The notes beneath the pieces were generated by a model, which was not told the origin of the DNA, searched no databases, and saw nothing but the letters and a program-made list of their open reading frames with translations. From Candidatus Poribacteria bacterium (GTDB lineage Bacteria > Poribacteria > WGA-4E > WGA-3G), in contig OZ243938.1 of assembly GCA_965214095.1 (NCBI GenBank), forward strand, positions 3,744,001 to 3,808,000: DNA of 64,000 bases, read 5' to 3'. The number at the start of each line of letters is the position of its first letter. Position 1 is the stretch's first letter. The position numbers and the translations under genes were made by a program. Positions 1,186 to 25,580 of the stretch are shown here, one piece after another.

Positions 1186-1254
1186 AGAGTCTTTTTACTA
1201 TTTAGTGATAGGTTAATAATTTCCAACCGATTCCAGGCAAACTTGGATAAAACA

Positions 1255-2178
1255 ATGAATCTGATTCAGTTAGAAAATGTCCGCAAACAATTTGGCTATT
1301 TCACTGCTGTTGACGACATCTCATTTAGCATTGAGAAAGGTTCTATATACGGATTGCTCGGACCCAACGGTGCTGGTAAAACGACGACGCTTCGCATGAT
1401 AATGGACATTATCGCACCAGATTCCGGCAAGATTACGTTTAGTGAAAACCGACAGATCAAAAACTTCTTGGACAGTATCGGGTATCTCCCGGAAGAGCGC
1501 GGACTTTACCGAAAAATGAAGGTACGCGATGTCGTTCTTTTTATTGCAGAATTGAAAGGCATGCGTAAACATGAGGCTATAACTGAGATAGAAAAGTGGT
1601 TTGTGCTTATGCAACTAAACGAATGGGGAGACAAGCGAGTTGATCAACTCTCAAAAGGTATGGCACAGAAGATTCAGTTCATCACAACTGTAATGCATAA
1701 ACCAGAGTTGATCATTTTGGACGAACCATTTTCTGGACTTGACCCGATTAACATGACGCTTCTCAAAGATTTGATGCTTGAACTGCGAGACAACGGTGCT
1801 ACGATAATTTTCTCAACACACGTGATGGAGCAAGTTGAAAAATTGTGTGATCACATCTGTCTTATCAATAAAGGCAGCATTTTGCTTGAGGGTGAACTCC
1901 GCACAATTAAGCAGAGTTTCGGAAAGAGTTCGGTGGAAATTGAATACATCGGTAGCATTGAACCTATTCGTAACTCCTCTTGGATCAAAGACTGTAATGA
2001 TTTTGGTCAGTACGCTGAGGTGAAGCTTAAGACACCTGAGGACTATCGTCCATTTCTACGTGAACTGGTTGATAACAAGGTTGATGTAACACGGTTTGAA
2101 TTAATGGAACCGACACTGCACGATATTTTCGTCCGTAGTGTTGAAGCACACAAAGGGACGGTAGAAGATGCCGAATAA
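1255..2178 (+). CDS. ABC transporter ATP-binding protein (NatA/YhaQ-like)
   Basis: Walker A GPNGAGKTT, LSKGM signature, LIILDEP Walker B, STH; ATG at 1255 chosen over TTG at 1243. Confidence 0.92.
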   Translation: MNLIQLENVRKQFGYFTAVDDISFSIEKGSIYGLLGPNGAGKTTTLRMIMDIIAPDSGKITFSENRQIKNFLDSIGYLPEERGLYRKMKVRDVVLFIAELKGMRKHEAITEIEKWFVLMQLNEWGDKRVDQLSKGMAQKIQFITTVMHKPELIILDEPFSGLDPINMTLLKDLMLELRDNGATIIFSTHVMEQVEKLCDHICLINKGSILLEGELRTIKQSFGKSSVEIEYIGSIEPIRNSSWIKDCNDFGQYAEVKLKTPEDYRPFLRELVDNKVDVTRFELMEPTLHDIFVRSVEAHKGTVEDAE

Positions 2179-3499: not shown

Positions 3500-3573
3500 A
3501 TGTTCAAGACATCTTCAGATAACTAAGAAACTCGTTTCTATGCTTAGAGCCGTTCACAGTAAGGAGACTAAAT

Positions 3574-4194
3574 ATGATGCAGATTGCTGTCGTAACAGGA
3601 GAGCACGGTTTTCGCGAAAAAGATTTTGACGCAGTTTTTCAAAGTATGGAAAACATAACGTTTGTCAGAGAAGATTTAGATGACTTTGTGGATAATCCAA
3701 AGCAGAATGAATATGACACCGTTGTCTTTTACAACTTTCACCGTCCATATCCATCAGAGGCACAGGCAAAATCTATTTTGAGATTGACTGAAAAAGGACA
3801 AGGAATTGTCATCCTTCACCATGCTATTCTCGCATTTCCAGAGTGGGATGCTTTCTCTGATATGTGCGGCATTGATGAACGTGCTGAGTTTGACTACTTT
3901 CCAAAACAGACATTCCAAGTGCAAATCATTGATAAGACCCACCCCATTACCGAAGGACTTGCCGATTGGGAAATGGGTGATGAAACCTATACGATGACAT
4001 CAGCAGATGAAGATAGCACTATCCTGCTAACAACCAATCATCCAGACAGTATGGACGTGTTAGGTTGGGTGCGTGAATATGGGAATTCGCGTATTTTCTG
4101 TCTCCAGAGTGGACACGACAACGTTACCTATTCAAATCCAAACTTCCGTGAGGTATTGCAGCGCGGTATTCAGTGGTGTGGAAAAAATAGTTGA
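3574..4194 (+). CDS. ThuA-like (class I glutamine amidotransferase fold) protein
   Basis: VTGEH, GIVILHH, HPITEGL, DETY, W.REYG.SRIF...GHD, QRGIQW; SD AAGGAG upstream. Confidence 0.8.
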   Translation: MMQIAVVTGEHGFREKDFDAVFQSMENITFVREDLDDFVDNPKQNEYDTVVFYNFHRPYPSEAQAKSILRLTEKGQGIVILHHAILAFPEWDAFSDMCGIDERAEFDYFPKQTFQVQIIDKTHPITEGLADWEMGDETYTMTSADEDSTILLTTNHPDSMDVLGWVREYGNSRIFCLQSGHDNVTYSNPNFREVLQRGIQWCGKNS

Positions 4195-4205
4195 GAGAAA
4201 AAGCA

Positions 4206-5312
4206 ATGAAGTTTAACACCTTCTCTATTCTCCTTCTCCTCTGTCTTGGAACAGTTTGTGTTATTCTGTTACTTTCAAAAACACTTGTAAACGCTGATAA
4301 AGGTAAAACGATGCCACAAACAACTTATATAGCAGGACATTCACACCAGTCAGACGGTTATGACATCTATTCCATAGAACAAAAGGGTATAGCCGTTGCT
4401 GAAATTGTTCCTGCACTCGGAAATAATTGTTATTCTTTTATGGTAAGCGATGGACACTTTTGGTATAACTTGATAGATCCGCCACCTGATTTGAATACAT
4501 TGGCACAACGTCCAACTGCTTACGGCAATCCAATACTATTCCCGTTTCCCAACCGAATACGAAACGGCAAATGGGAATTTGAAGGAAAAACTTATCAGTT
4601 TGACAAGCAACCTGAATCTCCCACGACAATACACGGTCTGCTTTTGAATCGACCCTATAAAGTTGACAAACATACTGTCGATGAAAACGGGGCAACATTG
4701 GTATGTTCATTGAACTCACAAGAATTCCCAGATGTCATCCGACAATATCCCTTTCCATTCAAAATTGAAATTACCTATACAATCACAGATGGCGTATTGA
4801 CAATGGGTATTGTCATTAAGAATACGGGAGAGAGTAATATGCCGATGGGATTTGGTATACATCCTTATTTTAGTGTAGACATTTCCGCTAAAGCGGATGC
4901 GTCAAAAGCTGTAATAACTGTTCCTGCTAACAAGTATTGGGAATTGGATGATGTGCTTGTTCCAACAGGTAGACAACTTGATGTTGATGGAACGGTTGAT
5001 TTACGTTATGGACAACCGTTTGAAAAACTCAAACTTGATCATGTCTTCACAGATGTCGATTTTGTTGACGGTGTAAGTCGGTGTAGCATTGAAAATAAAG
5101 ATACAGGATACGGTATGGTGATGGAATCAGATGCACAATTTAGAGAATTAGTGGTTTATACTCCGCCAGATAGGGATGCTATCTGTTTTGAACCTTACAC
5201 TTGCCCGACAGATGCTATTAATTTAGAAGCAAAAGGTATTCCAGCAGGAGTGATTGTGCTTGCACCTGATGAGACATTTTCAGCAACCGTGCGGATATTT
5301 CTAACACATTAA
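4206..5312 (+). CDS. Aldose 1-epimerase family protein with N-terminal signal/anchor
   Basis: LFPFPNRI, IHGL, GFGIHPYF, ICFEP motifs; hydrophobic N-terminus. Confidence 0.88.
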   Translation: MKFNTFSILLLLCLGTVCVILLLSKTLVNADKGKTMPQTTYIAGHSHQSDGYDIYSIEQKGIAVAEIVPALGNNCYSFMVSDGHFWYNLIDPPPDLNTLAQRPTAYGNPILFPFPNRIRNGKWEFEGKTYQFDKQPESPTTIHGLLLNRPYKVDKHTVDENGATLVCSLNSQEFPDVIRQYPFPFKIEITYTITDGVLTMGIVIKNTGESNMPMGFGIHPYFSVDISAKADASKAVITVPANKYWELDDVLVPTGRQLDVDGTVDLRYGQPFEKLKLDHVFTDVDFVDGVSRCSIENKDTGYGMVMESDAQFRELVVYTPPDRDAICFEPYTCPTDAINLEAKGIPAGVIVLAPDETFSATVRIFLTH

Positions 5313-11418: not shown

Positions 11419-12543
11419 ATGAATGCAATAGAACTAACCAAAAAGCTTATTGGATACAACACAGTAAGTCCAAAGAGTAACGTTGAAGTCATGGACTTCT
11501 TAACAATAACATTAGAATCAATCGGATGTGAAGTTGAGAGAGTTGAATATAATGATCCAGCAGGTGTCCTAAAAGTAAATCTGATTGGAAGGAAAGGACC
11601 TGATAATGGAAAACGTGGATTAGGACTTCTCGGTCACATAGACACCGTTCCTGCCATTGGATGGTCGGAGGATCCCTTTGAAGCACGGATCGTTGATGGA
11701 AAAATGTATGGACGTGGCAGCTGCGATATGAAAGGCAGTGTCGCATGCATGATTGAGACTGCTTCACGTTACGATGCTGCTGACCTACATGCACCGCTCT
11801 ATGTAGTTATCACTGCTGATGAAGAGGTAGGTTATTTCGGGGCAACTGCTGTCGCTGAAAAATCCGAAATGTTTAAAGAACACGGATTCCCGCAATACGG
11901 GGTCGTTGGTGAACCGACTGAACTAAAGGCTGTTTATGCACATAAAGGAGCAGTCCGATTTTCAGTAACCGCGTATGGACGCGCAGCGCATAGCAGCACA
12001 GGTGAAGGTGACAACGCAAACCTTAAACTCATTCCATTTCTTTCAGAAATGAGGGATATTTATGAAGAATTGATGTCCGATCCGCAATATTATAACGTTG
12101 AGTTCACGCCACCCTATACAGATTGGAATATCACATTAAGTGATGGAGAGTGCACTGCCAACATCACCTCACCGCGAAGTGTATGTAATATCAACTACCG
12201 TCCGATGCCGGGTGATGATATCCAATATTGGATCGATCGTGGACGAAATGCAGCAGAGAAATATGGACTGGAATTTGACCTATTCATCAATGCCGGACCT
12301 GTTCGCACACCACCCGATGCAGAGATCATCAAAGCAGCACTTGAAATTACGGGAGACACAAAACCGCATACTGTGGCATACGGCACAGATGCTGCGGAAT
12401 TTGCCAATCACATGGAAACTGTCATAATAGGTCCTGGAAGTATTCTACAGGCACATACTGTTGATGAATGGATGGCAATAGATCAGTTTGAGAAGGGAAC
12501 AGATATTTTTTGTCAGTTTGTTGATAGGTTCTGCGTTGGTTAA
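11419..12543 (+). CDS. M20 family metallo-amidohydrolase (ArgE/DapE-like)
   Basis: GHIDTVP, GRGSCDMKG, DEE, GEPT, AHSS, QAHTVDE. Confidence 0.9.
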   Translation: MNAIELTKKLIGYNTVSPKSNVEVMDFLTITLESIGCEVERVEYNDPAGVLKVNLIGRKGPDNGKRGLGLLGHIDTVPAIGWSEDPFEARIVDGKMYGRGSCDMKGSVACMIETASRYDAADLHAPLYVVITADEEVGYFGATAVAEKSEMFKEHGFPQYGVVGEPTELKAVYAHKGAVRFSVTAYGRAAHSSTGEGDNANLKLIPFLSEMRDIYEELMSDPQYYNVEFTPPYTDWNITLSDGECTANITSPRSVCNINYRPMPGDDIQYWIDRGRNAAEKYGLEFDLFINAGPVRTPPDAEIIKAALEITGDTKPHTVAYGTDAAEFANHMETVIIGPGSILQAHTVDEWMAIDQFEKGTDIFCQFVDRFCVG

Positions 12544-12613
12544 GAGGCGCAATGAATTGCGCGACTACGAACACCTATTTTGATAATGACAAGTTATCTT
12601 TTGGAAATGGTAT
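12544..12613 (-). repeat. REP family B hairpin with partial MITE end
   Basis: Reverse complement of GTAGTCGCGCAATTCATTGCGCCTC directly after the M20 stop, then GAAATGGTAT at 12604-12613. Confidence 0.7.
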
Positions 12614-13415: not shown

Positions 13416-13431
13416 TTTCGGATTGTATTAT

Positions 13432-13598
13432 TGGTGTGTAAAGTTTTGGGCAAAATGGACGCAGACATCCTGTAGGAGCGATCTCCGCATCGCGATTTCT
13501 TCCATTGTCCGAGCGATCTCCGAATCGCGAACTGTCGGGAATCAGAGATTGCTCTGACAGGTCTTTTGATCATATTTTGTCAATAAATTTACACGCCA
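13432..13598. mobile_element. MITE-like element with internal GTAG REP doublet (left border of defence island)
   Basis: Terminal inverted repeats TGGTGTGTAAA...TTTACACGCCA; internal GTAGGAGCGATCTCCGCATCGCGA repeated and followed by a degenerate inverted copy; non-coding. Confidence 0.6.
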
Positions 13599-13614
13599 CT
13601 CGGAAAATATCTGA

Positions 13615-13643
13615 TTGACTACATCGTGCTGCTGTTGTATAAT
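13615..13643 (+). promoter_or_regulatory. Sigma70-type promoter for the Type ISP gene
   Basis: TTGACT-17 nt-TATAAT, ending 48 nt before the ATG. Confidence 0.7.
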
Positions 13644-13690
13644 CTCATACAAGAAGCCTTGACTATTTGCAAAGAAAGTGATAAACCGAT

Positions 13691-16600
13691 ATGCCTCAAG
13701 CAACACAAATGCCTTTACCATTCGGAAACGAAGAATCAGATAACGGATTCTACGATGCACTCAACTACATCCGACAAAACGCCAACACACAATTCGGAAA
13801 AGGTAGGCTATTCGAACGGTTAATAAGGGCATATCTGCTTGAAGACCCATTTTACCAAAAGCGATTTTCAGAGGTATATCTATGGGGAGAATGGGCAGAA
13901 AATCAACCCGGATTTGACCTTGTAGACCGTGGTATAGATCTCGTTGCCATAGAACGTACGGGTGGTATCTGCGCTATCCAGTGCAAATGTTACGCAGAAG
14001 ACAAACGTATATCAAAATCTGATATTGATACCTTCATATCAGAATCCAATCGGCAACCGTTCACCGCACGGATCTTTGTTGACACTGGCAAAAGCTGGAG
14101 TGCAAACCTCATCAAAGCCATTGATGGATTAGAACCGCCATGCCAACGGATAAGCGCAGCAGACCTCGCAAGTCGACCTGTTCAGTGGCCCGACCTAAGC
14201 CTACAAGAACCAGACCACCTAAACTATCAACTGGAAAGTTTCAGCCTACGCGAACATCAACAAAATGCGTTTGACGATGTTGTCAAAGGATTCAAAGAGT
14301 CTGACCGCGGCAAAATGATTATGGCGTGCGGCACAGGGAAAACATTCACCGCACTCCGTATCGCAGAGGAAATCGCTGGTGTGGGTGGACGGGTGTTATA
14401 TCTCGTGCCATCCATCGGACTGTTTGCACAAGCGATGCGTGAATGGGCAGAACAGCAGAAAGTGCCACATCGCTACATCGGAATATGCTCCGATACAAAG
14501 GCAGGTAGAACAGACGAGGACGCATCCCTCTATGAACTGGAATTCCCTGTTACCACCGATGAAACTGTCATCTCCGAAGCATTACAATCTTCTAACAGTG
14601 CTGGAGACGAAGACACCATGCGCGTCGTATTCTCCACCTATCAGTCACTCCCAAAAGTCGCGGAAGCACAAGATGCCGGTGCTCCACCTTTTGATATTAT
14701 TTTTTGCGATGAAGGTCACAGAACCACCGGCATTGACAGACCCGATGATAAGACCTCACCTTTCGTTCTCGTCCACGATACTGAACGTATCCGTGCCAAC
14801 AAACGACTCTATATGACCGCGACACCCCGTCTGTATACGCAAAGCGCGAAAACAAAAGCAGCAAAACACGATATTGAAGTGTTCTCTATGGACGATCCAA
14901 ACACTTATGGTCCCGAATTCCACCGACTCCCATTCTCAAAAGCAGTGGCGCAAGACCTACTCTCTGATTATAAGGTTGTCGTGCTCGCAATGTCCGAACA
15001 AGGTGTGCAGGATACGTTACACAACTATCTCAGCAATGGTGGCAGTGAGGTTAACATCAGCGATGCAGCTAAGATTGTCGGCTGTTGGCGTGCACTACAG
15101 AACCCCGAAAGGAAATCACCAGACGACAGGACAATCAAACCCCTCACACGCGCCATTGCATTCACAAACACCATCAAGTCATCACAGAACCTTGTGAACC
15201 ATTGGAACGGTATTATAGAGAGTGCCGTTGAACGGACATCGGAAGACCAACGTCCTGACGATTTCACATGCGAAACCGCACACGTCGACGGAACAAAGAA
15301 CGCCCTTGATAGAAAAAGACTTATTGAATGGCTAAAAGGCGATACGGATGATGTTTGTCGTATCCTCTCCAATGCCCGATGCCTGTCCGAAGGGATTGAT
15401 GTCCCTGCGCTTGATGCTGTGCTGTTCATGTCACCGCGCAACTCACACGTTGACATCGTGCAGGCAGTTGGTCGTGTGATGCGCAAAGCACCCGGTAAGC
15501 AATACGGCTATATCGTGTTGCCAGTCGCTATTCCGCCAGATGTTGACCCTGTCGACGCACTCAACGATAACGAAAGGTTCGCGACCGTGTGGGGTGTCCT
15601 CCGCGCACTCCGTTCACACGATGATAGACTCAATGCCGAAATCAATAAAATTGACCTTAACAACGATCCAGGTGATATTATTATCATTGATGATCATTTA
15701 GGTGAAGGCAAAGGTGGAAATGGAGATGGAACTATCGACCCTAAGCAGTTACTGCTGCCCTTTGGTATTCCTGCCGATGCAATTTATGCCAAAATCGTGG
15801 AGAAATGTGGTGATAGAAAATACTGGGAAAGTTGGGCAAAGGATGTCGCAGATATCTTCAAACGACTCGTCGGACGCATTGAAAATCTGCTGGAGAATCC
15901 TGATAATAGCGCGCTGCAAATGTGGTTTGACGATTTTCACAACGAGTTAAAGGAGACAATCAACGACTCAATCACCCGTGAAAGTGCTATTGATATGATG
16001 GCACAACACATTATCACACGACCCGTCTTTGAAGCACTCTTTGATAACTACGATTTTGCGTCCGGCAACCCGGTGGCAAACGCACTCAATAAACTCCAAA
16101 ACGATTTTGGTGAATTCGGTCTGGAAAACGAAACGCGTGATCTGGAAGGTTTCTACGAAAGTGTCCGCATGCGCGCACAAGGACTTGACAATAGCGAAGC
16201 ACGTCAACGCGTTTTGTTGGAACTCTATGAGAAGTTTTTTGTTACCGCATTGAAAAAGGAGGTAGAACGGCTTGGTATCGTCTACACACCGATTGAAGTT
16301 GTGGATTTCATACTCCATAGTGCCAACGAGGTGCTGCAAGATGAATTCGGACGTTGTCTCAGTGATGAAGGCGTGCATGTGCTGGATCCGTTCACCGGCA
16401 CCGGTATATTTCTCACACGCCTGCTGCAGTCCGATATTATCCAAGATGCTGACCTTGAACGCAAATATCGAGAAGAACTCCACGCAAACGAGATCGTCCT
16501 ATTGGCATACTACATTGCTACCGTCAACATAGAGGAGACATTCCGCGGACGGCGCGGCGTTGACAAAGGATATGAACCGTTCAACGGCATTGTCCTAACC

Positions 16601-18511
16601 GATACCTTCAATCTCAACAAAAAAGATGACCCTACGCTTTTTCCCAAAGAATGGCTGCCAGATAACAACAAACGCGCCGAACGCCAACAGAAACTTCCAA
16701 TCCAAGTCATCGTCGGTAATCCTCCATATTCCGCAGGACAACGAAGTTCCACAGATGACAATCCGAATGTGGAATACCCAACTCTTGCAGAACGTGTTAG
16801 TAAAACGTATGTTGAACGTGTAAAAACAACATTAAAACGGACTCTCTATGATACATATAAGATGGCAATCCGTTGGGCATCCGACAGGATTGATAAACAA
16901 GGGGTTGTAGCCTTTGTCACCAATGGTTCTTGGATTGACGGGAACGCCGATGCAGGGATTCGAGCATGTTTGGCGGAAGAGTTTAGTTCAGCCCATATCC
17001 TGCACTTACGAGGAGATGCATATACATCTGGAGAGCGTCGACGTGCTGAAGGGGGAAATGTGTTCGGTAGTGGTTCACGTACACCTGTCGCTGTCATGAT
17101 CCTCGTCAAGAACCCTAACGCTACACATGAGGGTTGCAAAATCCAATACCGTGATATTGGCGACTATCTCACACGCGAGGCGAAACTGGAAGTACTGCGT
17201 GAGGCGGAATCTATTAAAAAGATTAGTGATTGGAAGACGGTCATACCAGATCAACATCACGATTGGATTGGACAACGAAGCCAAGAATTTACAAAATTCT
17301 ATCCACTTGGTACAAAAGAAATGAAAGCGGGAAAAATCGAAAATGCAATATTTCAATTATATTCGTTGGGATTGTCAACAAACAGAAATGCCTACGTATA
17401 TAATTTTTCACGAGATACATGTGCACAGAAAGCTTTGTTGATGACTCAGGATTATCTCGCAGCTGTTTCCGATCTTGAAAAAAATCCGGGTCTTAATGTA
17501 AAAGAGGTAACGCGTCACAATTCCATAAATATTAAGTGGGATGACACACTCAAGAATAGACTAAAACAAAAGAAAAAATCGAGATTTAATGATGATTACA
17601 TTCGAAAGGTTATCTATCGCCCCTTTGTTGCCACCAATTGTTATGGTGACTATACTTTCATTACCAGAAAGGGACAAATGGATAAGATTTTCCCAGACAG
17701 TTCCAGCGAGAATTGGGTAATCTGTGCAACGGGTATCGGATCAAAAATACCTTTTTCTGCTTTTATGACCAATATACTGCCAGATCTTGAACTAATTTCT
17801 AAAGGACAATGCTTCCCCCGCTACCGATATCCCACACCATCGGATACACCAGACGCATCAGAAACGCTTCTTGATGTTGACGACTCACCTGATCGTATTG
17901 ACAATATATCAGATATCGCACTAAAAGCATTCCAAGAACATTACAGCGATGACTCTATCACAAAGGATGACATCTTTTATTATGTCTACGGCATCCTCCA
18001 CGCTCCAAGTTACCGAGAACAGTTCGCTAACGACTTATCCAAGATGCTCCCGCGTATCCCTTATGCGCCAGATTTCCGCGCATTCGCAGAAGCAGGTAAA
18101 AAGTTGGCAGACCTCCATCTCAACTACGAGACGTGCGAACAGTATCCACTCACAGTAGAGTATCCAAATATGTCCTCACCACCAACAGACCCGAACATTT
18201 TCCGGCTAACGGAAAGAGCCATGCGTTTTGGAGATATTGAAAGAAGATCGCTTCTCATCAACGAACCTGTCCACCTAACAGGTATTCCCGAAGATGCTCA
18301 TCGCTATGTCGTCAACGGCAGATCGCCGCTGGAGTGGTTTATTGATAGGTATTATATTAAGACTGATAAGGATAGTGGTATTGTCAACGACCCAAACGGT
18401 TGGTTTGCTGACCCACGGGATATTGTTGGTGCTATTCGGCGGATTGTTTATGTGAGTGTGAAGTCTGCTCGGATTGTTGATGGACTGCCTGGGGAGATAA
18501 CAGATGGGTAA
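13691..18511 (+). CDS. Type ISP restriction-modification enzyme (LlaGI/LlaBIII-like): Mrr-type nuclease, SF2 helicase, N6-adenine MTase, TRD
   Basis: GIDLVA...AIQCKCY nuclease; MACGTGKT, DEGHRT, MTATP, QAVGRVMRK helicase motifs; YTP.EVVDFI, DPFTGTG, GNPPY MTase motifs; 1606 aa. Confidence 0.95.
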   Translation: MPQATQMPLPFGNEESDNGFYDALNYIRQNANTQFGKGRLFERLIRAYLLEDPFYQKRFSEVYLWGEWAENQPGFDLVDRGIDLVAIERTGGICAIQCKCYAEDKRISKSDIDTFISESNRQPFTARIFVDTGKSWSANLIKAIDGLEPPCQRISAADLASRPVQWPDLSLQEPDHLNYQLESFSLREHQQNAFDDVVKGFKESDRGKMIMACGTGKTFTALRIAEEIAGVGGRVLYLVPSIGLFAQAMREWAEQQKVPHRYIGICSDTKAGRTDEDASLYELEFPVTTDETVISEALQSSNSAGDEDTMRVVFSTYQSLPKVAEAQDAGAPPFDIIFCDEGHRTTGIDRPDDKTSPFVLVHDTERIRANKRLYMTATPRLYTQSAKTKAAKHDIEVFSMDDPNTYGPEFHRLPFSKAVAQDLLSDYKVVVLAMSEQGVQDTLHNYLSNGGSEVNISDAAKIVGCWRALQNPERKSPDDRTIKPLTRAIAFTNTIKSSQNLVNHWNGIIESAVERTSEDQRPDDFTCETAHVDGTKNALDRKRLIEWLKGDTDDVCRILSNARCLSEGIDVPALDAVLFMSPRNSHVDIVQAVGRVMRKAPGKQYGYIVLPVAIPPDVDPVDALNDNERFATVWGVLRALRSHDDRLNAEINKIDLNNDPGDIIIIDDHLGEGKGGNGDGTIDPKQLLLPFGIPADAIYAKIVEKCGDRKYWESWAKDVADIFKRLVGRIENLLENPDNSALQMWFDDFHNELKETINDSITRESAIDMMAQHIITRPVFEALFDNYDFASGNPVANALNKLQNDFGEFGLENETRDLEGFYESVRMRAQGLDNSEARQRVLLELYEKFFVTALKKEVERLGIVYTPIEVVDFILHSANEVLQDEFGRCLSDEGVHVLDPFTGTGIFLTRLLQSDIIQDADLERKYREELHANEIVLLAYYIATVNIEETFRGRRGVDKGYEPFNGIVLTDTFNLNKKDDPTLFPKEWLPDNNKRAERQQKLPIQVIVGNPPYSAGQRSSTDDNPNVEYPTLAERVSKTYVERVKTTLKRTLYDTYKMAIRWASDRIDKQGVVAFVTNGSWIDGNADAGIRACLAEEFSSAHILHLRGDAYTSGERRRAEGGNVFGSGSRTPVAVMILVKNPNATHEGCKIQYRDIGDYLTREAKLEVLREAESIKKISDWKTVIPDQHHDWIGQRSQEFTKFYPLGTKEMKAGKIENAIFQLYSLGLSTNRNAYVYNFSRDTCAQKALLMTQDYLAAVSDLEKNPGLNVKEVTRHNSINIKWDDTLKNRLKQKKKSRFNDDYIRKVIYRPFVATNCYGDYTFITRKGQMDKIFPDSSSENWVICATGIGSKIPFSAFMTNILPDLELISKGQCFPRYRYPTPSDTPDASETLLDVDDSPDRIDNISDIALKAFQEHYSDDSITKDDIFYYVYGILHAPSYREQFANDLSKMLPRIPYAPDFRAFAEAGKKLADLHLNYETCEQYPLTVEYPNMSSPPTDPNIFRLTERAMRFGDIERRSLLINEPVHLTGIPEDAHRYVVNGRSPLEWFIDRYYIKTDKDSGIVNDPNGWFADPRDIVGAIRRIVYVSVKSARIVDGLPGEITDG

Positions 18512-18551
18512 AGTGTCTGTTTATTGAGTTAAGTATATTCGTCACTTTTCC

Positions 18552-18581
18552 TTGACAAGACGTGAGAGAATGTGTTAATAT
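18552..18581 (+). promoter_or_regulatory. Putative sigma70 promoter downstream of the ISP gene
   Basis: TTGACA-18 nt-TAATAT with TG upstream of the -10. Confidence 0.5.
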
Positions 18582-18878
18582 ACTATTATGAATCATTACG
18601 ACTCTGCAAACGTCAAATGATTCAACGATCCATGGCAGACACTCATATTTACTAAACGTGAATTTATGAGTGTCGGAACGCCTTTCGTGTTTCTCCTGAT
18701 AGCATGTATGTTCGGAACGCTTATCCAAGAGACTCTGTTTAATGACACAGGTCTCTTTAATGCCACTTCTAAGGCTCTCAGTAGCCTTCATACAAACATG
18801 TTGACTAACATGATGTCAACTGAACTAACAAAATGGGTGGTTCAAAAATCCCATTTTTATATATTAGGAGGTATTTTT

Positions 18879-18977
18879 ATGTTAGGAAATTTCAGAAAAA
18901 ATTTGGCAAGGTATATAAACCTAATATCCGCAAACAACCCTAAAGGGGACACGGAAGAAGTTCGTGAGTGGGTTTAA
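18879..18977 (+). CDS. Possible 32-aa small peptide (MLGNFRKNLARY...)
   Basis: Strong SD AGGAGG before ATG; followed by an AGGGGGAC/GTCCCCCT hairpin at 18994-19018; in frame with the 18666 ORF. Confidence 0.35.
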   Translation: MLGNFRKNLARYINLISANNPKGDTEEVREWV

Positions 18978-19134
18978 ATACTCACATAGAAGTAGGGGGA
19001 CATATAAGAAGTCCCCCTTGGATGTGCATGCAATAACCCTTCTTGAGTTACCTCCTACCTTTTCAAATTTCCCATAAGTTCAGTTATCGTCTACTGATAG
19101 TCAATCTAGCTTTTGGAATACCTTATACGTTATT

Positions 19135-21888
19135 ATGTTCACTAATCCCTATTCCATTTACATAGATAAACGCCCGATGAGGATCGTGTTCCTTGTGAGT
19201 CCTTCACAGGACAGCATTGAGATAGTCGATAAAATAATAAATTACAACAGGGGATTGTGGGGTGGTCGATACAACCCAATTATTCTAACTGATGGAAAAG
19301 CAATCGAAGATAATTGGTGGAAGTTTCTACGCGACCTTGACCCAGATGTTATCAAACCTTTAGTGCCTCTGAGCAATGAACTCATAGAAAAATTTGAAAA
19401 CTTCCTCTCTCCTTTGACAATTGAAGAGTTTCGAGAAGATGACAATTCAAGATTAGAAGTAGGTACCCGCATTTCTCCTGCACGTGTAAATCCTAAATCA
19501 ATAAATTCCCGTGAATCTTTGGTCTTGTTTAGAGAACCAATACTTGGGCTTTTTAATGTAGATGAGATGGACTCCGGCGTAGATAAACTTTTCATTGACC
19601 GCAATTTTGGAGTATCTGCAGACGGAAGACATCATTACGGTTGGGATGCATTTGATATTCCGATATCGCTTGAGACAGCATTGTCGCGCGGAGAAGTTCC
19701 TCAAGAGATACATGAAGGATTTATAAAAAAAGGACTTGAAGAAAAAGGTATACCTTTTTCTCAGGAAGTTTTCAGTAAAGAATCAGTGCAAGAACCTGGA
19801 AATTGGGCAATAATAGATAGGGAAAATAATGGTATACACTACATTGAACGTAGGGATGGAAGATTATGTGTTCTTCCTTATAGGAAAAGTAAGATTCTCA
19901 ACTCTGATGAAAATGAGATTGAGAAAAATATCTACTTAACGGTTGATCGGGAAAGTCTCGTTGATGCTTTATCAGAACTCGCTAAAACTAATAATATGAT
20001 ATACCGTGATCAAATTTGTGCTTTTCCGAATACAGAACGAGATGTTGAAAAACAAGAACAAGATCGTTTTCAAGTTATTGTAGGTGATACTATAGAAGAT
20101 CTTGTCTATTTTTGGAACAGACCTTGGTTGATAAGTCGATGGAAACGGCAGTATATGCATCAGTTATGGCTTCCCACTGCCTTAGCTACTGATCCAGATA
20201 TGGAAGATGCGCTCTGTGCTTGGATAAACAAGAATTCTTGGATTGAGCGTGAAAATTCCAAAGCAATCCAGTTTGTTAGCTTCAGCACTGAAGAAGAGGA
20301 TCTTAAGAATATAGCAAGTAGGTTCCGGAATAAACTAAGGTTTTCTACTAACGTAAAATGTTACGATGAACCACAAACACCTAATTTTCGTTCTGAAGAT
20401 CCATTATTCTCCTTGCGTCAAAATCCATTTACCGATAGAGATAGTAATATTGAACTTCATAGGGGACAAGGTAATACAAACATACTTGAATTAACCGAAC
20501 CTAATGGAATTGCCCAACGCGATCTGGACGGACATTGGATGGCAGATTTTTATATTGAGTTTACAAGTGATATGTACAATAATCATGATGCACCAATAAT
20601 AAGAATAAGAAACCAATTTTCCTTTTGGCAGTTTCCAAACCGCAACCATTTGACGCGCAACATGTTTGATAGATTTTGCAGAATCCGACAGAACGGTTTC
20701 CCAACCGCCCTGATGAAACGAGGAGAAAAAGTATTAAGGTTCACGCTTGAAAATCCTGAGGTTGTAGTAGCTTCACTATTTTATGGTAATAATCGTTTTG
20801 AGTATGTTGATAGCGATCCACGGACTCAGGTTGCGATTGCCCCATACTATTACTCAAAAATATCAGATAAAGGAAAATATCTTCAAGGTGTACTCGAACT
20901 GTTTGGTAATCTGACCTATGCTTACGAAATATTCAGGAACCCGTATTGGCGGGCAATGTTTGATCTCTTGTGCAAAAACACTCGCGCAGAACAGAATGCG
21001 AAAAAGTTAGTCGAGGACAAATTGAGAAAACTAATCAATAGGTCGGAACCGTTGACATCTTCTAACCAAAATGCTATTGAGGCACTTGCCACACAAGCTG
21101 TAGACATCGCAAAAAAACTAAAATTAAAACAGAAAGAAGTTCCTTTCAAAGCATTTGAAGTAGAAGCAGAGATAAGGCGAGATACCTTTATTGAAGGCGT
21201 AAAATCAACAGGTAACTACTCCGAAAGGGACCTAATGGGTTTTGGTTTTAGACCCGAAGATGTGAAAGATGCTCTTTCACAATTAACAGAGAGGAATATT
21301 ATCCAGATTGGTGTAAACCCACGATGCCCTAATTGCGGTATAACAACATGGTTTCATGTAGACGACATCGGACAACAATTAACATGTCAAGGATGTAGGA
21401 GACCATTTCCTCTTCATCCACAACTTACTTGGCAATATAGATTGAATAATCTCGCCCATGCTGCTCATGCCCAACATGGAACTACGCCTCTAATTTTAGT
21501 TTTGGGACAATTGTTCAATGAAAGCAGATGTTCTTTTCTCTATTCTCCTAATTTAAATTTATGTGCTGAACAGCAGGACAACTCGTCTGTAGACTTAGAC
21601 TTAGATTCAATTGCAGAAGTCGATATCGCATGCATTCAGGATAGTAAATTCATTATTGGTGAAGTCAAGCAGTCAATGAGTCTTTTCAGTAAAAAGGATT
21701 TTGATGATATGGCAGAGATTGCCAAGAGAGTAAAACCAGATAAGGTTTTATTTTCATGTATAGATAAACAACAACCAACTCAAAACATAACTAACCACAT
21801 TGAAAGAATCAAAAAGGAACTATGTCCACTTGAAATTGATGTTATATGGTACGAATTGGAATCTTTGGATTATTCATATAGTGTGTAG
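19135..21888 (+). CDS. Large hypothetical protein with C-terminal Zn ribbon and PD-(D/E)XK-like nuclease motif (candidate defence protein)
   Basis: 917-aa AT-rich ORF; CPNC...CQGC; EVDIACIQDSKFIIGEVKQS fits D-x(n)-E-x-K. Confidence 0.75.
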   Translation: MFTNPYSIYIDKRPMRIVFLVSPSQDSIEIVDKIINYNRGLWGGRYNPIILTDGKAIEDNWWKFLRDLDPDVIKPLVPLSNELIEKFENFLSPLTIEEFREDDNSRLEVGTRISPARVNPKSINSRESLVLFREPILGLFNVDEMDSGVDKLFIDRNFGVSADGRHHYGWDAFDIPISLETALSRGEVPQEIHEGFIKKGLEEKGIPFSQEVFSKESVQEPGNWAIIDRENNGIHYIERRDGRLCVLPYRKSKILNSDENEIEKNIYLTVDRESLVDALSELAKTNNMIYRDQICAFPNTERDVEKQEQDRFQVIVGDTIEDLVYFWNRPWLISRWKRQYMHQLWLPTALATDPDMEDALCAWINKNSWIERENSKAIQFVSFSTEEEDLKNIASRFRNKLRFSTNVKCYDEPQTPNFRSEDPLFSLRQNPFTDRDSNIELHRGQGNTNILELTEPNGIAQRDLDGHWMADFYIEFTSDMYNNHDAPIIRIRNQFSFWQFPNRNHLTRNMFDRFCRIRQNGFPTALMKRGEKVLRFTLENPEVVVASLFYGNNRFEYVDSDPRTQVAIAPYYYSKISDKGKYLQGVLELFGNLTYAYEIFRNPYWRAMFDLLCKNTRAEQNAKKLVEDKLRKLINRSEPLTSSNQNAIEALATQAVDIAKKLKLKQKEVPFKAFEVEAEIRRDTFIEGVKSTGNYSERDLMGFGFRPEDVKDALSQLTERNIIQIGVNPRCPNCGITTWFHVDDIGQQLTCQGCRRPFPLHPQLTWQYRLNNLAHAAHAQHGTTPLILVLGQLFNESRCSFLYSPNLNLCAEQQDNSSVDLDLDSIAEVDIACIQDSKFIIGEVKQSMSLFSKKDFDDMAEIAKRVKPDKVLFSCIDKQQPTQNITNHIERIKKELCPLEIDVIWYELESLDYSYSV

Positions 21889-22054
21889 TGTGAAATAGAT
21901 TTATAGCGATGATACTAAATTAATGCGGACAAGTCAAGAAGGCACTTTGTCTCTGAACCTGAACGAAATGCAGACAATTCAGTCCCATTTGCAACGCTAC
22001 AATGCAATCCAACTGATGTAGAGTTTGAGACTTTTCCGCGCGGTTTGGTTTAGG

Positions 22055-22135
22055 GCAATTAAATGTATTGTTTATGTGAGTGTGGAATCTGCTTGCATTA
22101 TTGATAATCTGCCCGCTGAAATAACTGCGGAATAA
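22055..22135 (+). pseudogene. Orphan 3' tail of a Type ISP gene (copy 2)
   Basis: Translates AIKCIVYVSVESACIIDNLPAEITAE*; 17/26 aa identical to the ISP C-terminus AIRRIVYVSVKSARIVDGLPGEITDG*. Confidence 0.88.
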
Positions 22136-22265
22136 GGTTCCCCTGTACTTTTTGAATTGGAATTGAAGAAACTGTTATAGAATAAAATGAACACAGAAAT
22201 TATAAGATGGTTGGACACTCAGTTGCAACAAATTCCAAGACCATCTTTTTTCTAAAGGTAGATCA

Positions 22266-23480
22266 ATGTATACTAACCGAACCGAACTCATAGAAAAAAT
22301 ATTTCTTGGTGAAGACACAACAATTGAATTCAAAAGAGAGATGCCTCACAGAAACAGTTTGGCAGACGAGATTGCTGCTTTTGCAAACGCCCAAGGCGGC
22401 GTAATACTTATCGGCGTTGACGACTATAGGGAAATTGTTGGCCTTGAACTGCCGGAGCTGGATAGGATAGAAAAAACGGTTGTTGAAATATGCAATGACT
22501 GGATTGAACCTACCGTTCCCATCTTCACAGAAAAATTAAGGTTTGATGGTAAAAACCTACTAAAAATTGATGTGTCGCGTAGTCTTTTTGTTCATAAAAC
22601 GTCTAACGGTTATTTCACCCGTAAAGAAAGATGCAAGAAAGAGATGTCAACACAACAGTTAGCCCGACTGTTTCAAACCCGTTCACAGCCGCGCAAAATT
22701 CACTTTGACACACTACCTGTCCCAAACACACATAGAAGAACATTAAGGGAATCGTTATATCGACGATGCATCACAGAAAACGTCTCTGAAGATGAGATAG
22801 AAGACCTACTCTTGAAAAGAAGTTTACTTGTTAAAGAAGGACAGACGACCCGTGCTACTGTTGCTGGCGTTTTAATGTGTCACGATACACCTGATGATTT
22901 TCTCTATAACAGTTTTATTCAAGCCGTTTATTATAGCGGCAAAGTAAAAGATGCGAACTACCAAATTGATGCAAAAGATTTTAGAGGACCACTTGACCAA
23001 CAGATTATAGATGCCTTTAAGTTTGTCCAAAAACACAATGAGGTATCAGCGCGTAAGGACATTGGTAGGATAGACCGACCTCAATACAGCATGCGCGCCG
23101 TTTTCGAGGCAATCGTTAACGCAGTTGTACATAGAGATTATTCTAAAGACGAGTCAAGAATTCGTCTTTTCATGTTTGCTGATCGACTGGAACTATATTC
23201 TCCCGGTGCATTAGCAAATACTGTAACAATTGAAAAATTACCCTATAACCAAGCTACCCGTAATGAACTCTTAGCACGTTTACTTTCGGAAATTAATTTA
23301 GATGATGATGTTGGAGGAGAAGTGAAGCGGAGACACTTTTTAGAGGGACGTGGTGAAGGTGTAGGTATCATCCTGAACGAAAGTGAACAATTGAGTGGAA
23401 AAATACCTGTCTATGAACTATTTAACGAAGAATTGTGCTTAACAATTTTCGCCGCAAAATCCCTTCAAGAAACAGTATAA
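22266..23480 (+). CDS. AlbA_2 (Schlafen-like) domain plus HATPase_c_4/RecG-C-type protein
   Basis: GEDTTIEFK, IAAFANAQGGVILIGVDD; EAIVNAVVHRDYS, ELYSPG, RN.LLA, EGRGEGV. Confidence 0.88.
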   Translation: MYTNRTELIEKIFLGEDTTIEFKREMPHRNSLADEIAAFANAQGGVILIGVDDYREIVGLELPELDRIEKTVVEICNDWIEPTVPIFTEKLRFDGKNLLKIDVSRSLFVHKTSNGYFTRKERCKKEMSTQQLARLFQTRSQPRKIHFDTLPVPNTHRRTLRESLYRRCITENVSEDEIEDLLLKRSLLVKEGQTTRATVAGVLMCHDTPDDFLYNSFIQAVYYSGKVKDANYQIDAKDFRGPLDQQIIDAFKFVQKHNEVSARKDIGRIDRPQYSMRAVFEAIVNAVVHRDYSKDESRIRLFMFADRLELYSPGALANTVTIEKLPYNQATRNELLARLLSEINLDDDVGGEVKRRHFLEGRGEGVGIILNESEQLSGKIPVYELFNEELCLTIFAAKSLQETV

Positions 23481-23596
23481 ACGATTGGTTTTCAGATCCA
23501 TACGATATTATTGAAGCAATCAAGCGGATTGTTTATGTGAGTGTAGAATCTACGCGAATTATTGATGGGCTGCCTAATGAGATAACTACTGACTAA
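23480..23596 (+). pseudogene. Orphan 3' tail of a Type ISP gene (copy 3)
   Basis: Translates NDWFSDPYDIIEAIKRIVYVSVESTRIIDGLPNEITTD*; 26/38 aa identical to ISP 18395-18511 with no gaps; begins at the stop codon of the preceding gene. Confidence 0.92.
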
Positions 23597-23635
23597 TGTA
23601 ATCACCACGCACTATCGTCAAATCTTTTATAAGAA

Positions 23636-23725
23636 TGTACTGCCAGCGGATACTCTTTTCAGTTAGAGTGTTATTATACCGTAATCTGGGTTTAGACTGT
23701 GGACACAATTTCCGATGGCAGTACA
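23636..23725. repeat. 15-bp inverted repeat with 60-nt spacer between convergent units
   Basis: TGTACTGCCAGCGGA ... TCCGATGGCAGTACA (14/15 complementary). Confidence 0.6.
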
Positions 23726-23782
23726 GTTTTTCTGATATGTATTGCATTGCTATAGAACAAAGATGAGGAAATTCAGTAGATT

Positions 23783-24757
23783 TTATTCAAGAGAATCCTC
23801 AAGCTCCATTAACATCTTTGGAACTTGTAGCATCATTTTATATTGCTTCTGAAGTGAATTCTGATGAGATGAAATCCAAGAAAGGGCATTAGCAACATCA
23901 TAGATATTTTCTGCAGGTTGTGCTCCAGGCACATTACCTTCCAAAGAAATTCTAATCATATAACAATCTTTTTTTTCTTCAGTTTTTTTGTCTTTGAATC
24001 TTGTGATCTTTGCATCTTGTCCTGTTTCCAGAATACTATATACTCTTTCAGCATTCCTGCGTCCCCACTTATCAGAGACTATAGTGTCAATCCAGTTCTG
24101 TAGTATTTCTGCATCTGTATCAGCATTTAGTTCTTTCTGTTTCCATTTTGTATATACTTCTTTTTCTCGTTGAATTTTTGAGATGTTTTCATTTAGATAT
24201 TCAATCAGTAATCCAGGATTTAAAGACCTTGTATGTCGTTTACTAAATCTACTTTCTGTGTCTAAACACATAAGCCCGTTCAAACAAACAAGTCTGTACC
24301 AAGATAACTCAAAAGCTAATTGAGCATTTCCATCTACAGAGTTCCTAACATGCAACTGAGGTATGAGTATATGGCCATCTCCTGGATCAAATATATATCC
24401 TTTCAAGAATTGTATTTTCAACCACATACGCTCGCCGTATTCTGTTAAATACAAGTTGCATTCGGTTTCATCTATGTTATATCCCAGATTTTCAAATGCT
24501 TTAGTAATAATTTCAAGTATCTCAGAATGTTGAACAAGAGAATATGATTTAGATACTGTTGCGACAGGTATGCCACCATGTGAAGTATTTACGATTACAT
24601 CAAAATGTTTATTCTCCAATCCGCCTACTTCAAAAGGCTGCTTCCTAAAAACAGATATATAATCTGCAATTTCTACAAGATTTCCTTTATGTTCATTAAC
24701 TAATCTACTGTCCCATTCTAAATTATTTAGGTGGTATGTATTCTCTAAGGTGTTCAT
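23783..24757 (-). CDS. DUF932-like domain protein
   Basis: VATVSKSYSLVQH, GERM, RNSVDG, YRLVCLNGL, KRHT motifs typical of the DUF932/YafZ-like group. Confidence 0.75.
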   Translation of the reverse strand: MNTLENTYHLNNLEWDSRLVNEHKGNLVEIADYISVFRKQPFEVGGLENKHFDVIVNTSHGGIPVATVSKSYSLVQHSEILEIITKAFENLGYNIDETECNLYLTEYGERMWLKIQFLKGYIFDPGDGHILIPQLHVRNSVDGNAQLAFELSWYRLVCLNGLMCLDTESRFSKRHTRSLNPGLLIEYLNENISKIQREKEVYTKWKQKELNADTDAEILQNWIDTIVSDKWGRRNAERVYSILETGQDAKITRFKDKKTEEKKDCYMIRISLEGNVPGAQPAENIYDVANALSWISSHQNSLQKQYKMMLQVPKMLMELEDSLE

Positions 24758-25037
24758 GGTAATTTCCGTGTTCTAATTTATTAGCTTTTCTAGCTGAGAT
24801 TATGCGAATTACATTTCCCCGTTCAGTATGAATAACAACCAGCAATCTGTTTTTAACAGAATATCCAGTAGTTTTATATCTTTCTTCATCTTGTGAGTGT
24901 AGATCATCGTTCTCTGTTAATGATAGAGAAGATGAGAATACTGTCATTGCTTCATGAAAAGTTACTTTATGTTTTTTTACATTGTTTGTTTGCTTGTTCT
25001 CGTCCCACTCAAATTTAAGGTTATCATTGAATTCCAC
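24723..25037 (-). CDS. brnT: BrnT family toxin (RelE-like ribonuclease)
   Basis: FEWDENK...N..KH.V.F.EA, EERY..TG, LLVVIHTERG..IRIISARKA; GTG start. Confidence 0.88.
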   Translation of the reverse strand: MEFNDNLKFEWDENKQTNNVKKHKVTFHEAMTVFSSSLSLTENDDLHSQDEERYKTTGYSVKNRLLVVIHTERGNVIRIISARKANKLEHGNYHEHLREYIPPK

Positions 25038-25107
25038 GTACCCATCTCTGCCCCGCAGGAAATTGCTTTATGCAATCTCTAATAATCTATTTTGTGATGT
25101 GAAATCT

Positions 25108-25136
25108 ATGATAACATATTTCTTAGAGCTTGTCAA
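25108..25136 (-). promoter_or_regulatory. Sigma70-type promoter for brnT-DUF932
   Basis: Minus strand TTGACA-17 nt-TATCAT. Confidence 0.65.
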
Positions 25137-25152
25137 GAAATTGCTTTAACTG

Positions 25153-25514
25153 GGGTGTGTGAAGTTTTTGGCACAGAGATACACGCTTCTGTTTTCTTTA
25201 GTCCCGTAGGGACAGAATGTTTGTAGAAACCGAGTAGCATTCAACTCTTTAGTCCCGTATGAAGATTAAGAAATAAATTGGGTAATTTCCTTGAGAAGTC
25301 CGGTGCGGTTAGGAAACCGCACTATAGGCATCAATTTAGTGTTAATTATGCATTTTCCCCAAGACGGTAGGTTCGGTTTCCTAACCGAACCGGATCCTAC
25401 GGTAGAACCTCTATGAAGGTATTTGGCACAAAGCCGGTGCGGTTAGGAAACCGAACCTACCGGCACTTGGAAGGACGCTAAATTGACACCTATGGTGAAA
25501 AACTTTACATACCC
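25153..25514. mobile_element. Compound MITE-like element (right border of defence island) with REP hairpins and a nested MITE
   Basis: Outer TIRs GGGTGTGTGAAGTTTT...AAAACTTTACATACCC; the left end matches 13433 at 19/22 nt; family A REPs at 25301, 25365 and 25434; GTCCCGTAGGGAC palindrome at 25201. Confidence 0.65.
25327..25490. mobile_element. Nested MITE flanked by TA, carrying an inverted REP pair
   Basis: TA|GGCATCAATTTAGTGT ... ACGCTAAATTGACACC|TA. Confidence 0.6.
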
Positions 25515-25580
25515 TTGTATTTTCATCATTCATCTGGTAAAATAGATATAGAAATAAACTACGAAGAAACACAACAAAAC

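Follow-up and report, generated by a model that had tools for sequence, protein, structure and literature searches.

The closest described parallels of the locus reported here are arrays in which the 3' part of a resident gene is displaced downstream by newcomers. In the effector-immunity arrays of Vibrio cholerae's type VI secretion system (T6SS), incoming modules displace the resident 3' part downstream; the members of these arrays match intact modules of other strains, and the passages devoted to them propose homology-facilitated illegitimate recombination without an integrase (Kirchberger et al., 2017, PMC5361080). The same passages refer to the 'C-terminal displacement' of Rhs and contact-dependent inhibition (CDI) loci (Jackson et al., 2009; Koskiniemi et al., 2014, as cited in PMC5361080). 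Here we analyze a 64,000-nucleotide (nt) stretch of the genome of a Candidatus Poribacteria bacterium (GenBank assembly GCA_965214095.1, contig OZ243938.1, positions 3,744,001 to 3,808,000 of the forward strand), hereafter the window, in which an intact Type ISP restriction-modification gene is followed, in the same orientation, by two further copies of its own 3' end, each next to different genes. We read these two extra copies, or tails, as scars of successive displacement in a defence hotspot anchored on the Type ISP gene, a reading to which we assign a probability of roughly 75%.

Like the T6SS arrays, the ISP loci possess an upstream homology anchor behind which the old 3' part and its neighbour gene are shifted downstream. 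They depart from the arrays, as these are portrayed in the passages on them, by their restriction-modification anchor, by remnants that comprise the conserved last 23-127 amino acids (aa) only, and by a scar from the core gene purL and mosaic tails that point to later exchange. In the T6SS arrays, according to the same passages, retained immunity genes protect against the lost effector, which provides a selective reason for their retention, whereas the cargo of ISP loci consists of independent anti-phage systems. The likeness to Rhs and CDI loci, within what is said of them there, lies in strings of orphaned 3' fragments behind a full-length gene, in the same orientation and each with a partner gene. 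In the ISP loci the displaced part carries no function-determining domain and is accompanied by no protective partner, the cargo being stand-alone defence genes. Rhs and CDI orphans contain a variable toxin domain with a short conserved 5' patch, and their recombination with the main gene can switch its function; unlike them, ISP orphans have no variable target-recognition domain and cannot supply a new specificity. The parallel with Rhs and CDI loci drawn in an initial annotation of this DNA is apt as the closest match for displaced 3' parts and the lack of an integrase, and fails for the variable domain and the cognate partner. C-terminal displacement in Rhs and T6SS loci is the closest known parallel, and the mechanism is not a new category; what differs here is the restriction-modification anchor, the cargo of whole defence systems, the remnants without a variable domain and the core-gene scar.

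The anchor gene encodes a protein with the Pfam domains Mrr_cat_2 (residues 52-174), ResIII (184-380), Helicase_C (521-599), ISP_coupler (711-836), N6_Mtase/Eco57I (841-1106) and Type_ISP_C (1219-1577). This is the Type ISP order of Mrr-type nuclease, superfamily 2 (SF2) helicase-like ATPase, coupler, N6-adenine methyltransferase and C-terminal recognition domain, by which the product of 13691-18511 is a Type ISP enzyme of predicted activity. The same single-chain order of Mrr nuclease, SF2 ATPase, coupler, methyltransferase and recognition domain characterizes LlaGI and LlaBIII; these are lactococcal and plasmid-borne, and the passages describing them mention neither orphan 3' ends nor linked cargo. 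In the literature consulted, mostly open-access main texts, we came across no account of orphaned 3' ends, be it of Type ISP genes or of other restriction genes. Full-length identity of the gene to the ISP genes of relatives is 61-87%, and the conserved tail at its C-terminus spans about 40 residues. In what follows, G### designates related genomes (G000 being that of the window), L### fetched loci and X# sequencing runs; c5 and c6 are two genes that follow ISP tails in relatives, and purL' is a 5' fragment of purL. The stack consists of the following features.

13691-18511, + strand: Type ISP restriction-modification gene, intact, 1606 aa (Pfam)
18395-18511, + strand: tail 1, the live ISP 3' end and reference copy (repeat search, translation)
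18512-19134: spacer of 624 nt from tail 1 to the 917-aa gene, with small unsupported open reading frames (ORFs) only, of 103 aa (+ strand) and 119 aa (- strand)
19135-21888, + strand: 917-aa gene of no known family, a repeated right-hand neighbour of ISP tails
21908-22035, + strand: purL' scar, a 5' fragment (about codons 20-58) of purL, encoding phosphoribosylformylglycinamidine (FGAM) synthase (blastn, peptide match)
22036-22135, + strand: tail 2, an orphan ISP 3' end fused to purL', with an early frameshift and the last 26 codons and TAA in frame
22182-22265, + strand: 3' remnant of c6, its last ~84 nt (blastn to c6 3' ends in L046, L049 and L051)
22266-23480, + strand: AlbA_2 (Schlafen-type) plus HATPase_c_4 gene, 404 aa (Pfam)
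23479-23596, + strand: tail 3, an orphan ISP 3' end of 38 codons plus TAA (repeat search, translation)

A nucleotide repeat search of the window returned the tails as one three-member direct-repeat family, at 18394-18514 (reference), 22018-22138 (61% identity) and 23479-23599 (74%). A block of 17 nt is identical across all three on the + strand, at 18443, 22067 and 23528, and gave 0 matches across 100 dinucleotide-preserving shuffles. In translation, tail 1 terminates in ...RRIVYVSVKSARIVDGLPGEITDG, tail 2 in ...AIKCIVYVSVESACIIDNLPAEITAE, and tail 3 reads NDWFSDPYDIIEAIKRIVYVSVESTRIIDGLPNEITTD, each closed by a TAA stop. The repeat search and the translations thus agree with the initial annotation that the ISP 3' end recurs twice downstream in the same orientation. 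Its further statement that the copies keep frame and stop applies to TAA in all three, and not to the beginning of tail 2, which is frameshifted near its start; this tail had also been placed at 22055, whereas homology begins at 22036, directly after a purL fragment that had gone unnoticed. Tail 3, starting at 23479, does begin at the AlbA_2 stop codon, as had been observed. When the 121-nt tail was used as query against the whole 5.25-Mb genome, it matched at these three sites only, the four remaining hits having E = 6.69. Three further Type_ISP_C genes lie elsewhere in the genome (G000:C1:991177, 1569503 and 4783794), in frames of 1037-1091 aa without the nuclease-helicase part; their tails show no DNA-level match to the ISP tail.

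Metagenome-assembled genomes call for caution with such repeats, since copies of about 100 nt can mislead assemblers into a chimeric join, and a chimera had been named as what would overturn the initial interpretation. It was checked and excluded, at the junctions tested, by contigs of individual runs: a 9183-nt contig spans 18200-22696 and a 2620-nt contig spans 22669-24200, both in runs X1, X3 and X4 and both with 0 differences. These three runs belong to a single study, and the source sample is possibly among them; in run X5, from a different study, contigs connect the end of the 917-aa gene, the purL fragment, tail 2 and the sequence behind it, other parts being without cover in X5. Short-read contigs cross every junction, with all three tails never on one contig, and assemblies made separately for other species contain these junctions too. 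We regard an assembly artefact as vanishingly improbable. One X5 contig, with its loose end at window position 22065, matches from the tail-2 core onward and carries different sequence before it; its upstream part resembles the sequence 5' of an orphan in G017, and a further orphan variant probably exists in the X5 sample.

The tails could conversely be genuine and of local origin, if cargo had been inserted with a long target duplication of the ISP 3' end and the copies had then diverged in place. Direct repeats of about 100-120 nt do flank the cargo, which is the geometry of an 'insertion with long target duplication', a process known for restriction-modification genes of Helicobacter. Against this, the identity of the copies to the live tail reaches only 61% and 74%, compared with 91-96% between the flanking core genes and those of the nearest relatives. 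Tail 2 is nearer to the live ISP allele of another species, G014, with which it shares 24 of 26 aa; it is fused to purL sequence; and the same junctions are found in other species beside other neighbours. Local duplication is thus very improbable. As judged from sequence, these comparisons show that the tails derive from other ISP alleles and are not decayed local duplicates, in line with what the initial annotation had suggested from the substitutions alone.

From the genomes compared, the finding of orphan tails is one that generalizes across the clade. At E <= 1, a match to the 38-aa tail exists in 51 of 61 related genomes and, within the genus, in 35 of 36; live and orphan tails are mixed among these matches. 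Of the loci carrying the tail in a collection of named genomes, 74 of 79 are from Candidatus Poribacteria. To separate live from orphan tails, a profile of the last 484 residues of 22 live ISP genes was applied to fetched loci read in all frames; the loci fetched are a subset of the tail matches listed, in addition to which there are 24 weak ones. The orphan count downstream of ISP loci, which had been suggested as a check, gave 35 unique orphans among the 109 unique tails found over all fetched loci.

Full C-domain tails: 68
Orphan tails, 23-127 aa: 35
Intermediate remnants, 225 and 260 aa: 2
Tails cut by contig ends: 4

At the fetched loci with a G designation, there are 26 orphans in 19 genomes, plus G008. 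As in the window, they are 3' fragments of the anchor gene lying downstream in the same orientation, and they exclude the recognition domain of ~360 aa; specificity switching via orphan tails was accordingly rejected. The remains of the anchor gene take several forms. Longer relics, counted as full C-domain tails, include an 891-aa ISP 3' part in G003, an internal deletion in G012 that joins residues 1-188 head-to-tail to residues 1073-1606, and ISP genes in G035 and G026 whose interior has given way to other genes. In L043 (G035; oriented positions 144-4676), the gene affected is a close relative of the ISP gene of the window; a 267-aa gene and an unrelated 1033-aa Type_ISP_C gene occupy its interior, while its initial 16 codons are kept, as is a 66-aa tail with 94% identity to tail 1. 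In G026 the interior is replaced by WD40 and trypsin-like genes. In G017, G022 and G008 the deletion of the ISP gene begins at its very start, and a tail of 25-48 aa is retained before cargo.

Tails and cargo recur as units. Cargo starts 8-60 nt past the tail stop, and clustering of the 300 nt after the stop yielded nine downstream families found behind both full ISP C-domains and orphan tails; the orphans of these families match full-length 3' ends elsewhere and keep the gene that follows. Occurrences of three downstream families are as follows.

c5-c6 type: 5 after full tails, 3 after orphans
917-aa type: 5 after full tails, 1 after orphans
DUF4268/PDC-S11 type: 0 after full tails, 6 after orphans

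For the first unit of the window, the 40 nt that follow the tail 1 stop reappear after the orphan tail of G025, where a homologue of the 917-aa gene starts ~590 nt later, and an N-terminal remnant of that gene (61 aa) follows the intact ISP gene of G028. The 103-aa spacer ORF has no Pfam match. The other two units are less direct. An intact ISP gene ending before AlbA_2 or before DUF932 had been predicted in relatives, and candidates for both exist in weakened form. L127 has an intact 1598-aa ISP gene and, 74 nt beyond it, an AlbA_2 homologue with 77% identity over 271 nt, whose ORF is only 188 aa; in G004 the stop of an intact 1613-aa ISP gene has behind it the same 18 nt as tail 3, and DUF932 (84% aa identity) and BrnT lie about 1 kb beyond these 18 nt. 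Tail 2 and AlbA_2 do not form a unit, contrary to the first description: the c6 3' remnant lies between them, and relatives have the order tail-c5-c6-AlbA_2 (G021 and G005) or tail-ThsB-x-TIR-Ppl-AlbA_2. Homology runs unbroken from 22182/22186 into AlbA_2 in L052 (85%) and L053 (80%), and AlbA_2 homologues with 75-82% aa identity occur at eight related loci, after Ppl/TrlF or after c6. Two of the three tail-neighbour pairings of the window are secondary, having arisen after deletions.

The boundary between purL' and tail 2 bears on how tails come to be displaced. The 128 nt before tail 2 (21908-22035) are 83-84% identical at the nt level to the purL 5' ends in L045 and L049, and the encoded peptide, ...EGTLSLNLNEMQTIQSH..., matches PurL N-termini; on the PurL side the join follows residue ~58, on the tail side it precedes the PRD motif, and microhomology amounts to 0-1 nt. 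Because purL' is fused to the tail with 0-1 nt shared, the junction is the scar of an illegitimate join, which agrees with the earlier proposal that such a join pushed an old tail downstream. The same purL'-tail junction is present in G035, G014, G009 and G015. In G015 the c6 3' end and the c6-purL spacer still precede the purL fragment, as at the native hotspot of G017; this is the appearance expected if an ISP-c5-c6-purL fragment had come in and its right end had been joined into the tail of a resident ISP gene.

A different process would apply if the tail were an attachment site at whose conserved core a site-specific recombinase, encoded elsewhere or lost, moves cassettes as in integrons. 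The 17-nt block is exact in the three copies of the window, the exchange points described below fall within about 43 nt that include it, and cassettes begin 8-60 nt from the tail stop. Integron cassettes are likewise ordered, in the same orientation and separated by a short repeated element, with new units thought to enter at the anchor end, and the ISP array shares the order, the common orientation and the short repeat between units. It differs from integrons by the lack of an integrase in the scanned ORFs, by crossovers that are not fixed, and by a repeat that is a coding remnant of the anchor gene. Recombinase, integrase and transposase domains were absent from the 30 proteins scanned with Pfam (island ORFs and hotspot flank genes), a scan that left out part of the small ORFs and the genes further away. 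Left junctions are variable: clustering of the upstream 150 nt sorts the 35 orphans, with remnants of 23-127 aa, into 22 families, which argues against a fixed crossover site, and the purL-tail join shares no more than 0-1 nt. A constraint on the 17-nt core at the DNA level was considered as a sign of a recombinase site and rejected: codon conservation in 22 live ISP genes is 0.72 in the tail (22 columns) as compared with 0.64 in the remainder of the C-terminal region (150 columns), and since it is barely raised, the exactness of the block stems mostly from conserved residues and relatedness. Taken together, these observations make an attachment site improbable.

Displacement at a scar and exchange between scars are different matters, and the tails bear marks of both. 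The purL' junction family has five members in five genomes, with five different downstream families and differing upstream genes. The last ~8 codons of the tail and the post-stop sequence track the cargo; tails ending in P-[LV]-Q-I, for instance, precede the DUF4268 gene. The G009 tail starts out as the purL'-junction type and within about 43 nt has become the type linked to DUF4268. The left junction between AlbA_2 and tail 3 is common to G024 and G035, where a DUF4268 gene follows the tail; the window lacks this gene, as well as about 30 nt present at the AlbA_2-tail junction in G024 and G035, and the last codons of tail 3 and 18 nt of its post-stop sequence match the live tail of G004 and not the G024/G035 type. 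Because the last tail codons go with the downstream cargo, we infer that crossovers also occur inside tails, giving mosaic tails via ordinary homologous recombination. The G014 orphan is identical to its own resident tail at 31 of 32 aa, which suggests conversion between copies. A strict order with the newest unit nearest to the ISP gene, as first proposed, is not supported: identical junctions carry different cassettes on both sides, and since this implies later exchange, the order of units is blurred.

These observations would fit the following course of events. Incoming DNA would bring an ISP gene with its downstream defence gene and, on one occasion, also the start of purL. On the left side, the incoming ISP gene would pair by homology with the resident ISP gene; on the right side, an illegitimate join would occur within the final ~25-130 codons of the resident copy, so that the old tail and its cargo are displaced downstream, as in homology-facilitated illegitimate recombination. 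The resulting tails of ~75-120 nt and purL fragment of 130-190 nt would then act as homology patches, at which homologous recombination may swap, delete or insert the cassettes lying between them. The array of the window would be a later, partly deleted descendant that lost c5-c6 and the DUF4268 gene, and that reached the intergenic site between moaD and folB as a single block of 12.1 kb. Displacement without an integrase, the core of the initial annotation, is largely borne out, with no recombinase domain in the scanned ORFs; what had to be revised is the role of the moaD-folB site, the pairing of tail 2 with AlbA_2 and the strict order.

Several points weigh against this course of events. 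Its steps are inferred from end states in different species, and locus counts are not event counts, given shared ancestry; the number of junction families is moreover approximate, as clustering on 150 nt may lump independent deletions that share an upstream gene (J2). Tail 1 and the G035 orphan are homologous through the stop codon, with cargo that differs right after it, so some exchange points lie outside tails. An intact purL 5' end was found within the 20 kb fetched at 0 of 5 loci with the purL' junction, and the purL' junction at 0 of 4 purL-adjacent loci probed. Because the junction and native purL never coincide in the probed loci, the recipient was probably an ISP locus away from purL, or the junction was later moved there; many of these genomes have multiple ISP genes. 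Finally, 35 of 37 complete remnants measure <=127 aa in a gene of 1606 aa, which random illegitimate joins alone do not explain. A bias of selection or mechanism is needed in addition, because a remnant that keeps the non-homologous target-recognition domain should be equally stable to recombination.

Such a bias could lie in retention, if tails were kept and trimmed short for a promoter, 5' leader or translation signal that the cargo needs in their last ~75 nt, under a deletion bias. The bimodal remnant sizes (35 of 23-127 aa against 2 intermediate) and the constantly short spacing from tail stop to cargo are in its favour, as are the tails of 25-48 aa kept by G017, G022 and G008 despite loss of the ISP gene from its start, and the absence of stops from the 20-codon core of 22 anchorable orphans. 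A scan for the sigma-70 consensus, a weak test for this phylum, found no site in the three tails and 22 in the region against 23.2 in shuffles, and no same-strand gene lies downstream of tail 3. The ratio of synonymous to non-synonymous differences is 90:74 in orphans and 78:47 in live tails (Fisher p = 0.23), so relaxed selection in orphans was rejected as a claim, the anchoring motif having matched 22 of 35 orphan and 22 of 68 live tails. Comparison of conservation across tail, spacer and cargo gave no clear signal, the choice of start codons being unreliable. Retention, kept as a partial explanation, is rather unlikely, albeit more credible than the other alternatives considered; it would explain persistence, not origin, and is compatible with successive displacement, with which it can be combined.

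The surroundings of the stack indicate that it did not grow where it now lies. The remaining features of the window that matter here are as follows.

13430-25514: 12.1-kb island between moaE/moaD (ThiS family) and folB (empty-site alignment with G021)
23783-24757, - strand: DUF932 gene (Pfam)
24723-25037, - strand: BrnT-family toxin gene (Pfam)
25153-25497: palindromic repeats at the island's right end, resembling repetitive extragenic palindromes (REP) or miniature inverted-repeat transposable elements (MITE), with hundreds of genome copies
From 25515: FolB gene (Pfam)

The island holds the ISP gene, the 917-aa gene, AlbA_2, DUF932 and BrnT, and Pfam upholds the order of genes first annotated, from ISP through 917-aa, AlbA_2, DUF932 and brnT to FolB, apart from the overlooked purL' fragment. 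A direct repeat of 7 nt, TTGTATT, delimits it on either side (13423-13429 and 25515-25521). The moaE/moaD and folB flanks are adjacent (gap <=186 nt) in G021, G024, G003, G020, G036, G010, G030 and G001, and in G005, G022 and G032 the site is filled differently, with unrelated inserts of 5.9, 2.5 and 1.75 kb (L155, L156 and L154, respectively). The proposal that the stack was built between moaD and folB with variable numbers of units is hence contradicted by a site that is empty in eight relatives and holds unrelated inserts in three; because of the latter, the moaD-folB site is a second variable hotspot. In at least seven genomes (G024, G017, G021, G022, G030, G006 and G008), the ISP locus or its remnants lie instead between PhyH-sulfatase-PEP_hydrolase-like genes and purL-purQ. 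At this site the window genome has a WD40 gene only, directly before its own intact purL (C1:4354091-4356478). The purL scar at tail 2 points to a probable origin of the stack at the purL-side hotspot, followed by relocation as a 12.1-kb block.

Both sites, on the purL side and between moaD and folB, have conserved core-gene flanks around content that differs between related genomes, empty sites included. They thereby resemble the enterobacterial immigration control region, a region of restriction and defence content flanked by core genes (reviewed in PMC12707154, which references Sibley and Raleigh, 2004), in which conserved anchors enclose variable content with some 'empty sites'; the anchors here are PEP_hydrolase-like...purL and moaD...folB. 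The passages of that review on the immigration control region describe no leftover gene tails at cassette boundaries and no duplicated fragments of an anchor gene.

Further elements surround the island. An 11-nt inverted match lies a few bases inside both island ends (13423-13447 and 25499-25521); with the 7-nt repeat, it may reflect a duplicated target and terminal inverted repeats, or a coincidence in repeat-rich DNA. The two island-end stretches gave 673 blastn matches in the genome, nearly all to the right-end element, and the left end (13433-13595) contains a second repeat family of about 160 nt with roughly ten copies. A 73-nt element at 12541-12613, between an M20 peptidase gene and moaE, is multi-copy here and in relatives (88-99% identity), and ARAGORN found no tRNA in it. 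At the distal side of the stack, 23782-25229 is 94% identical at the nt level to G035. The BrnT gene and the DUF932 start overlap by 35 nt, and no BrnA antitoxin ORF was noticed beside the BrnT gene in the ORF list and Pfam scan of the window.

The cargo itself is varied. In relatives it includes the defence-related Ppl/TrlF, PDC-S11 (DUF4268), ThsB-type TIR and AlbA_2 genes, and the AlbA_2 protein of the window matches part of the pAgo-fusion model of PADLOC. For the 917-aa protein, 0 matches were obtained in Pfam, NCBIfam and PADLOC, which leaves its earlier label 'nuclease-like' unsupported; in the Atlas it falls in unnamed clusters only, plus one weak Mrr_cat lead at 0.88. A five-gene block comprising a ThsB-type TIR gene, a 160-aa unknown, TIR_2, a Ppl/TrlF-family PHP-ATPase and AlbA_2+HATPase_c_4 is found in L043, L044 and L056 and partly in L042 and L070, its last two genes being 3 nt apart, and possibly forms a single composite defence system. 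Immediately behind ISP tails, the most frequent cargo is c5 (about 195 aa) with c6 (about 540-590 aa), a pair present at L057 (6219-8391) and seven other loci. Neither member has a Pfam or PADLOC match; c6 has none in NCBIfam, where c5 matches only the yabG model, far below threshold (E = 0.0086; 15 bits, the cut-off being 270). We consider c5-c6 a candidate new defence pair.

The question of how defence islands expand and are renewed at chromosomal hotspots without mobile-element genes is open, and the legible scars of these loci help to address it. Ends of the anchor gene, a fragment of a core gene and mosaic tails together speak for illegitimate displacement, then exchange at remnants that offer short stretches of homology. 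The recurrent cassettes, namely c5-c6, the 917-aa gene, c18 and the ThsB-x-TIR-Ppl-AlbA_2 block, are candidate anti-phage genes, because they occupy the same slots as Ppl/TrlF, PDC-S11 and ThsB-type genes, and orphan tails of large defence genes may serve as a practical marker for the boundaries of such cassettes. We tentatively consider a further possibility, in which our confidence is limited, namely that the tails, with the purL fragment, are the portable homology arms of an integrase-free cassette system. If so, a tail-flanked defence gene could loop out as a circle and reinsert at any ISP tail, RecA-type recombination over ~75-120 nt being sufficient, in the same cell or after transfer. 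Restriction genes would then double as docking sites at which the Poribacteria that live as sponge symbionts trade and stack their anti-phage genes.

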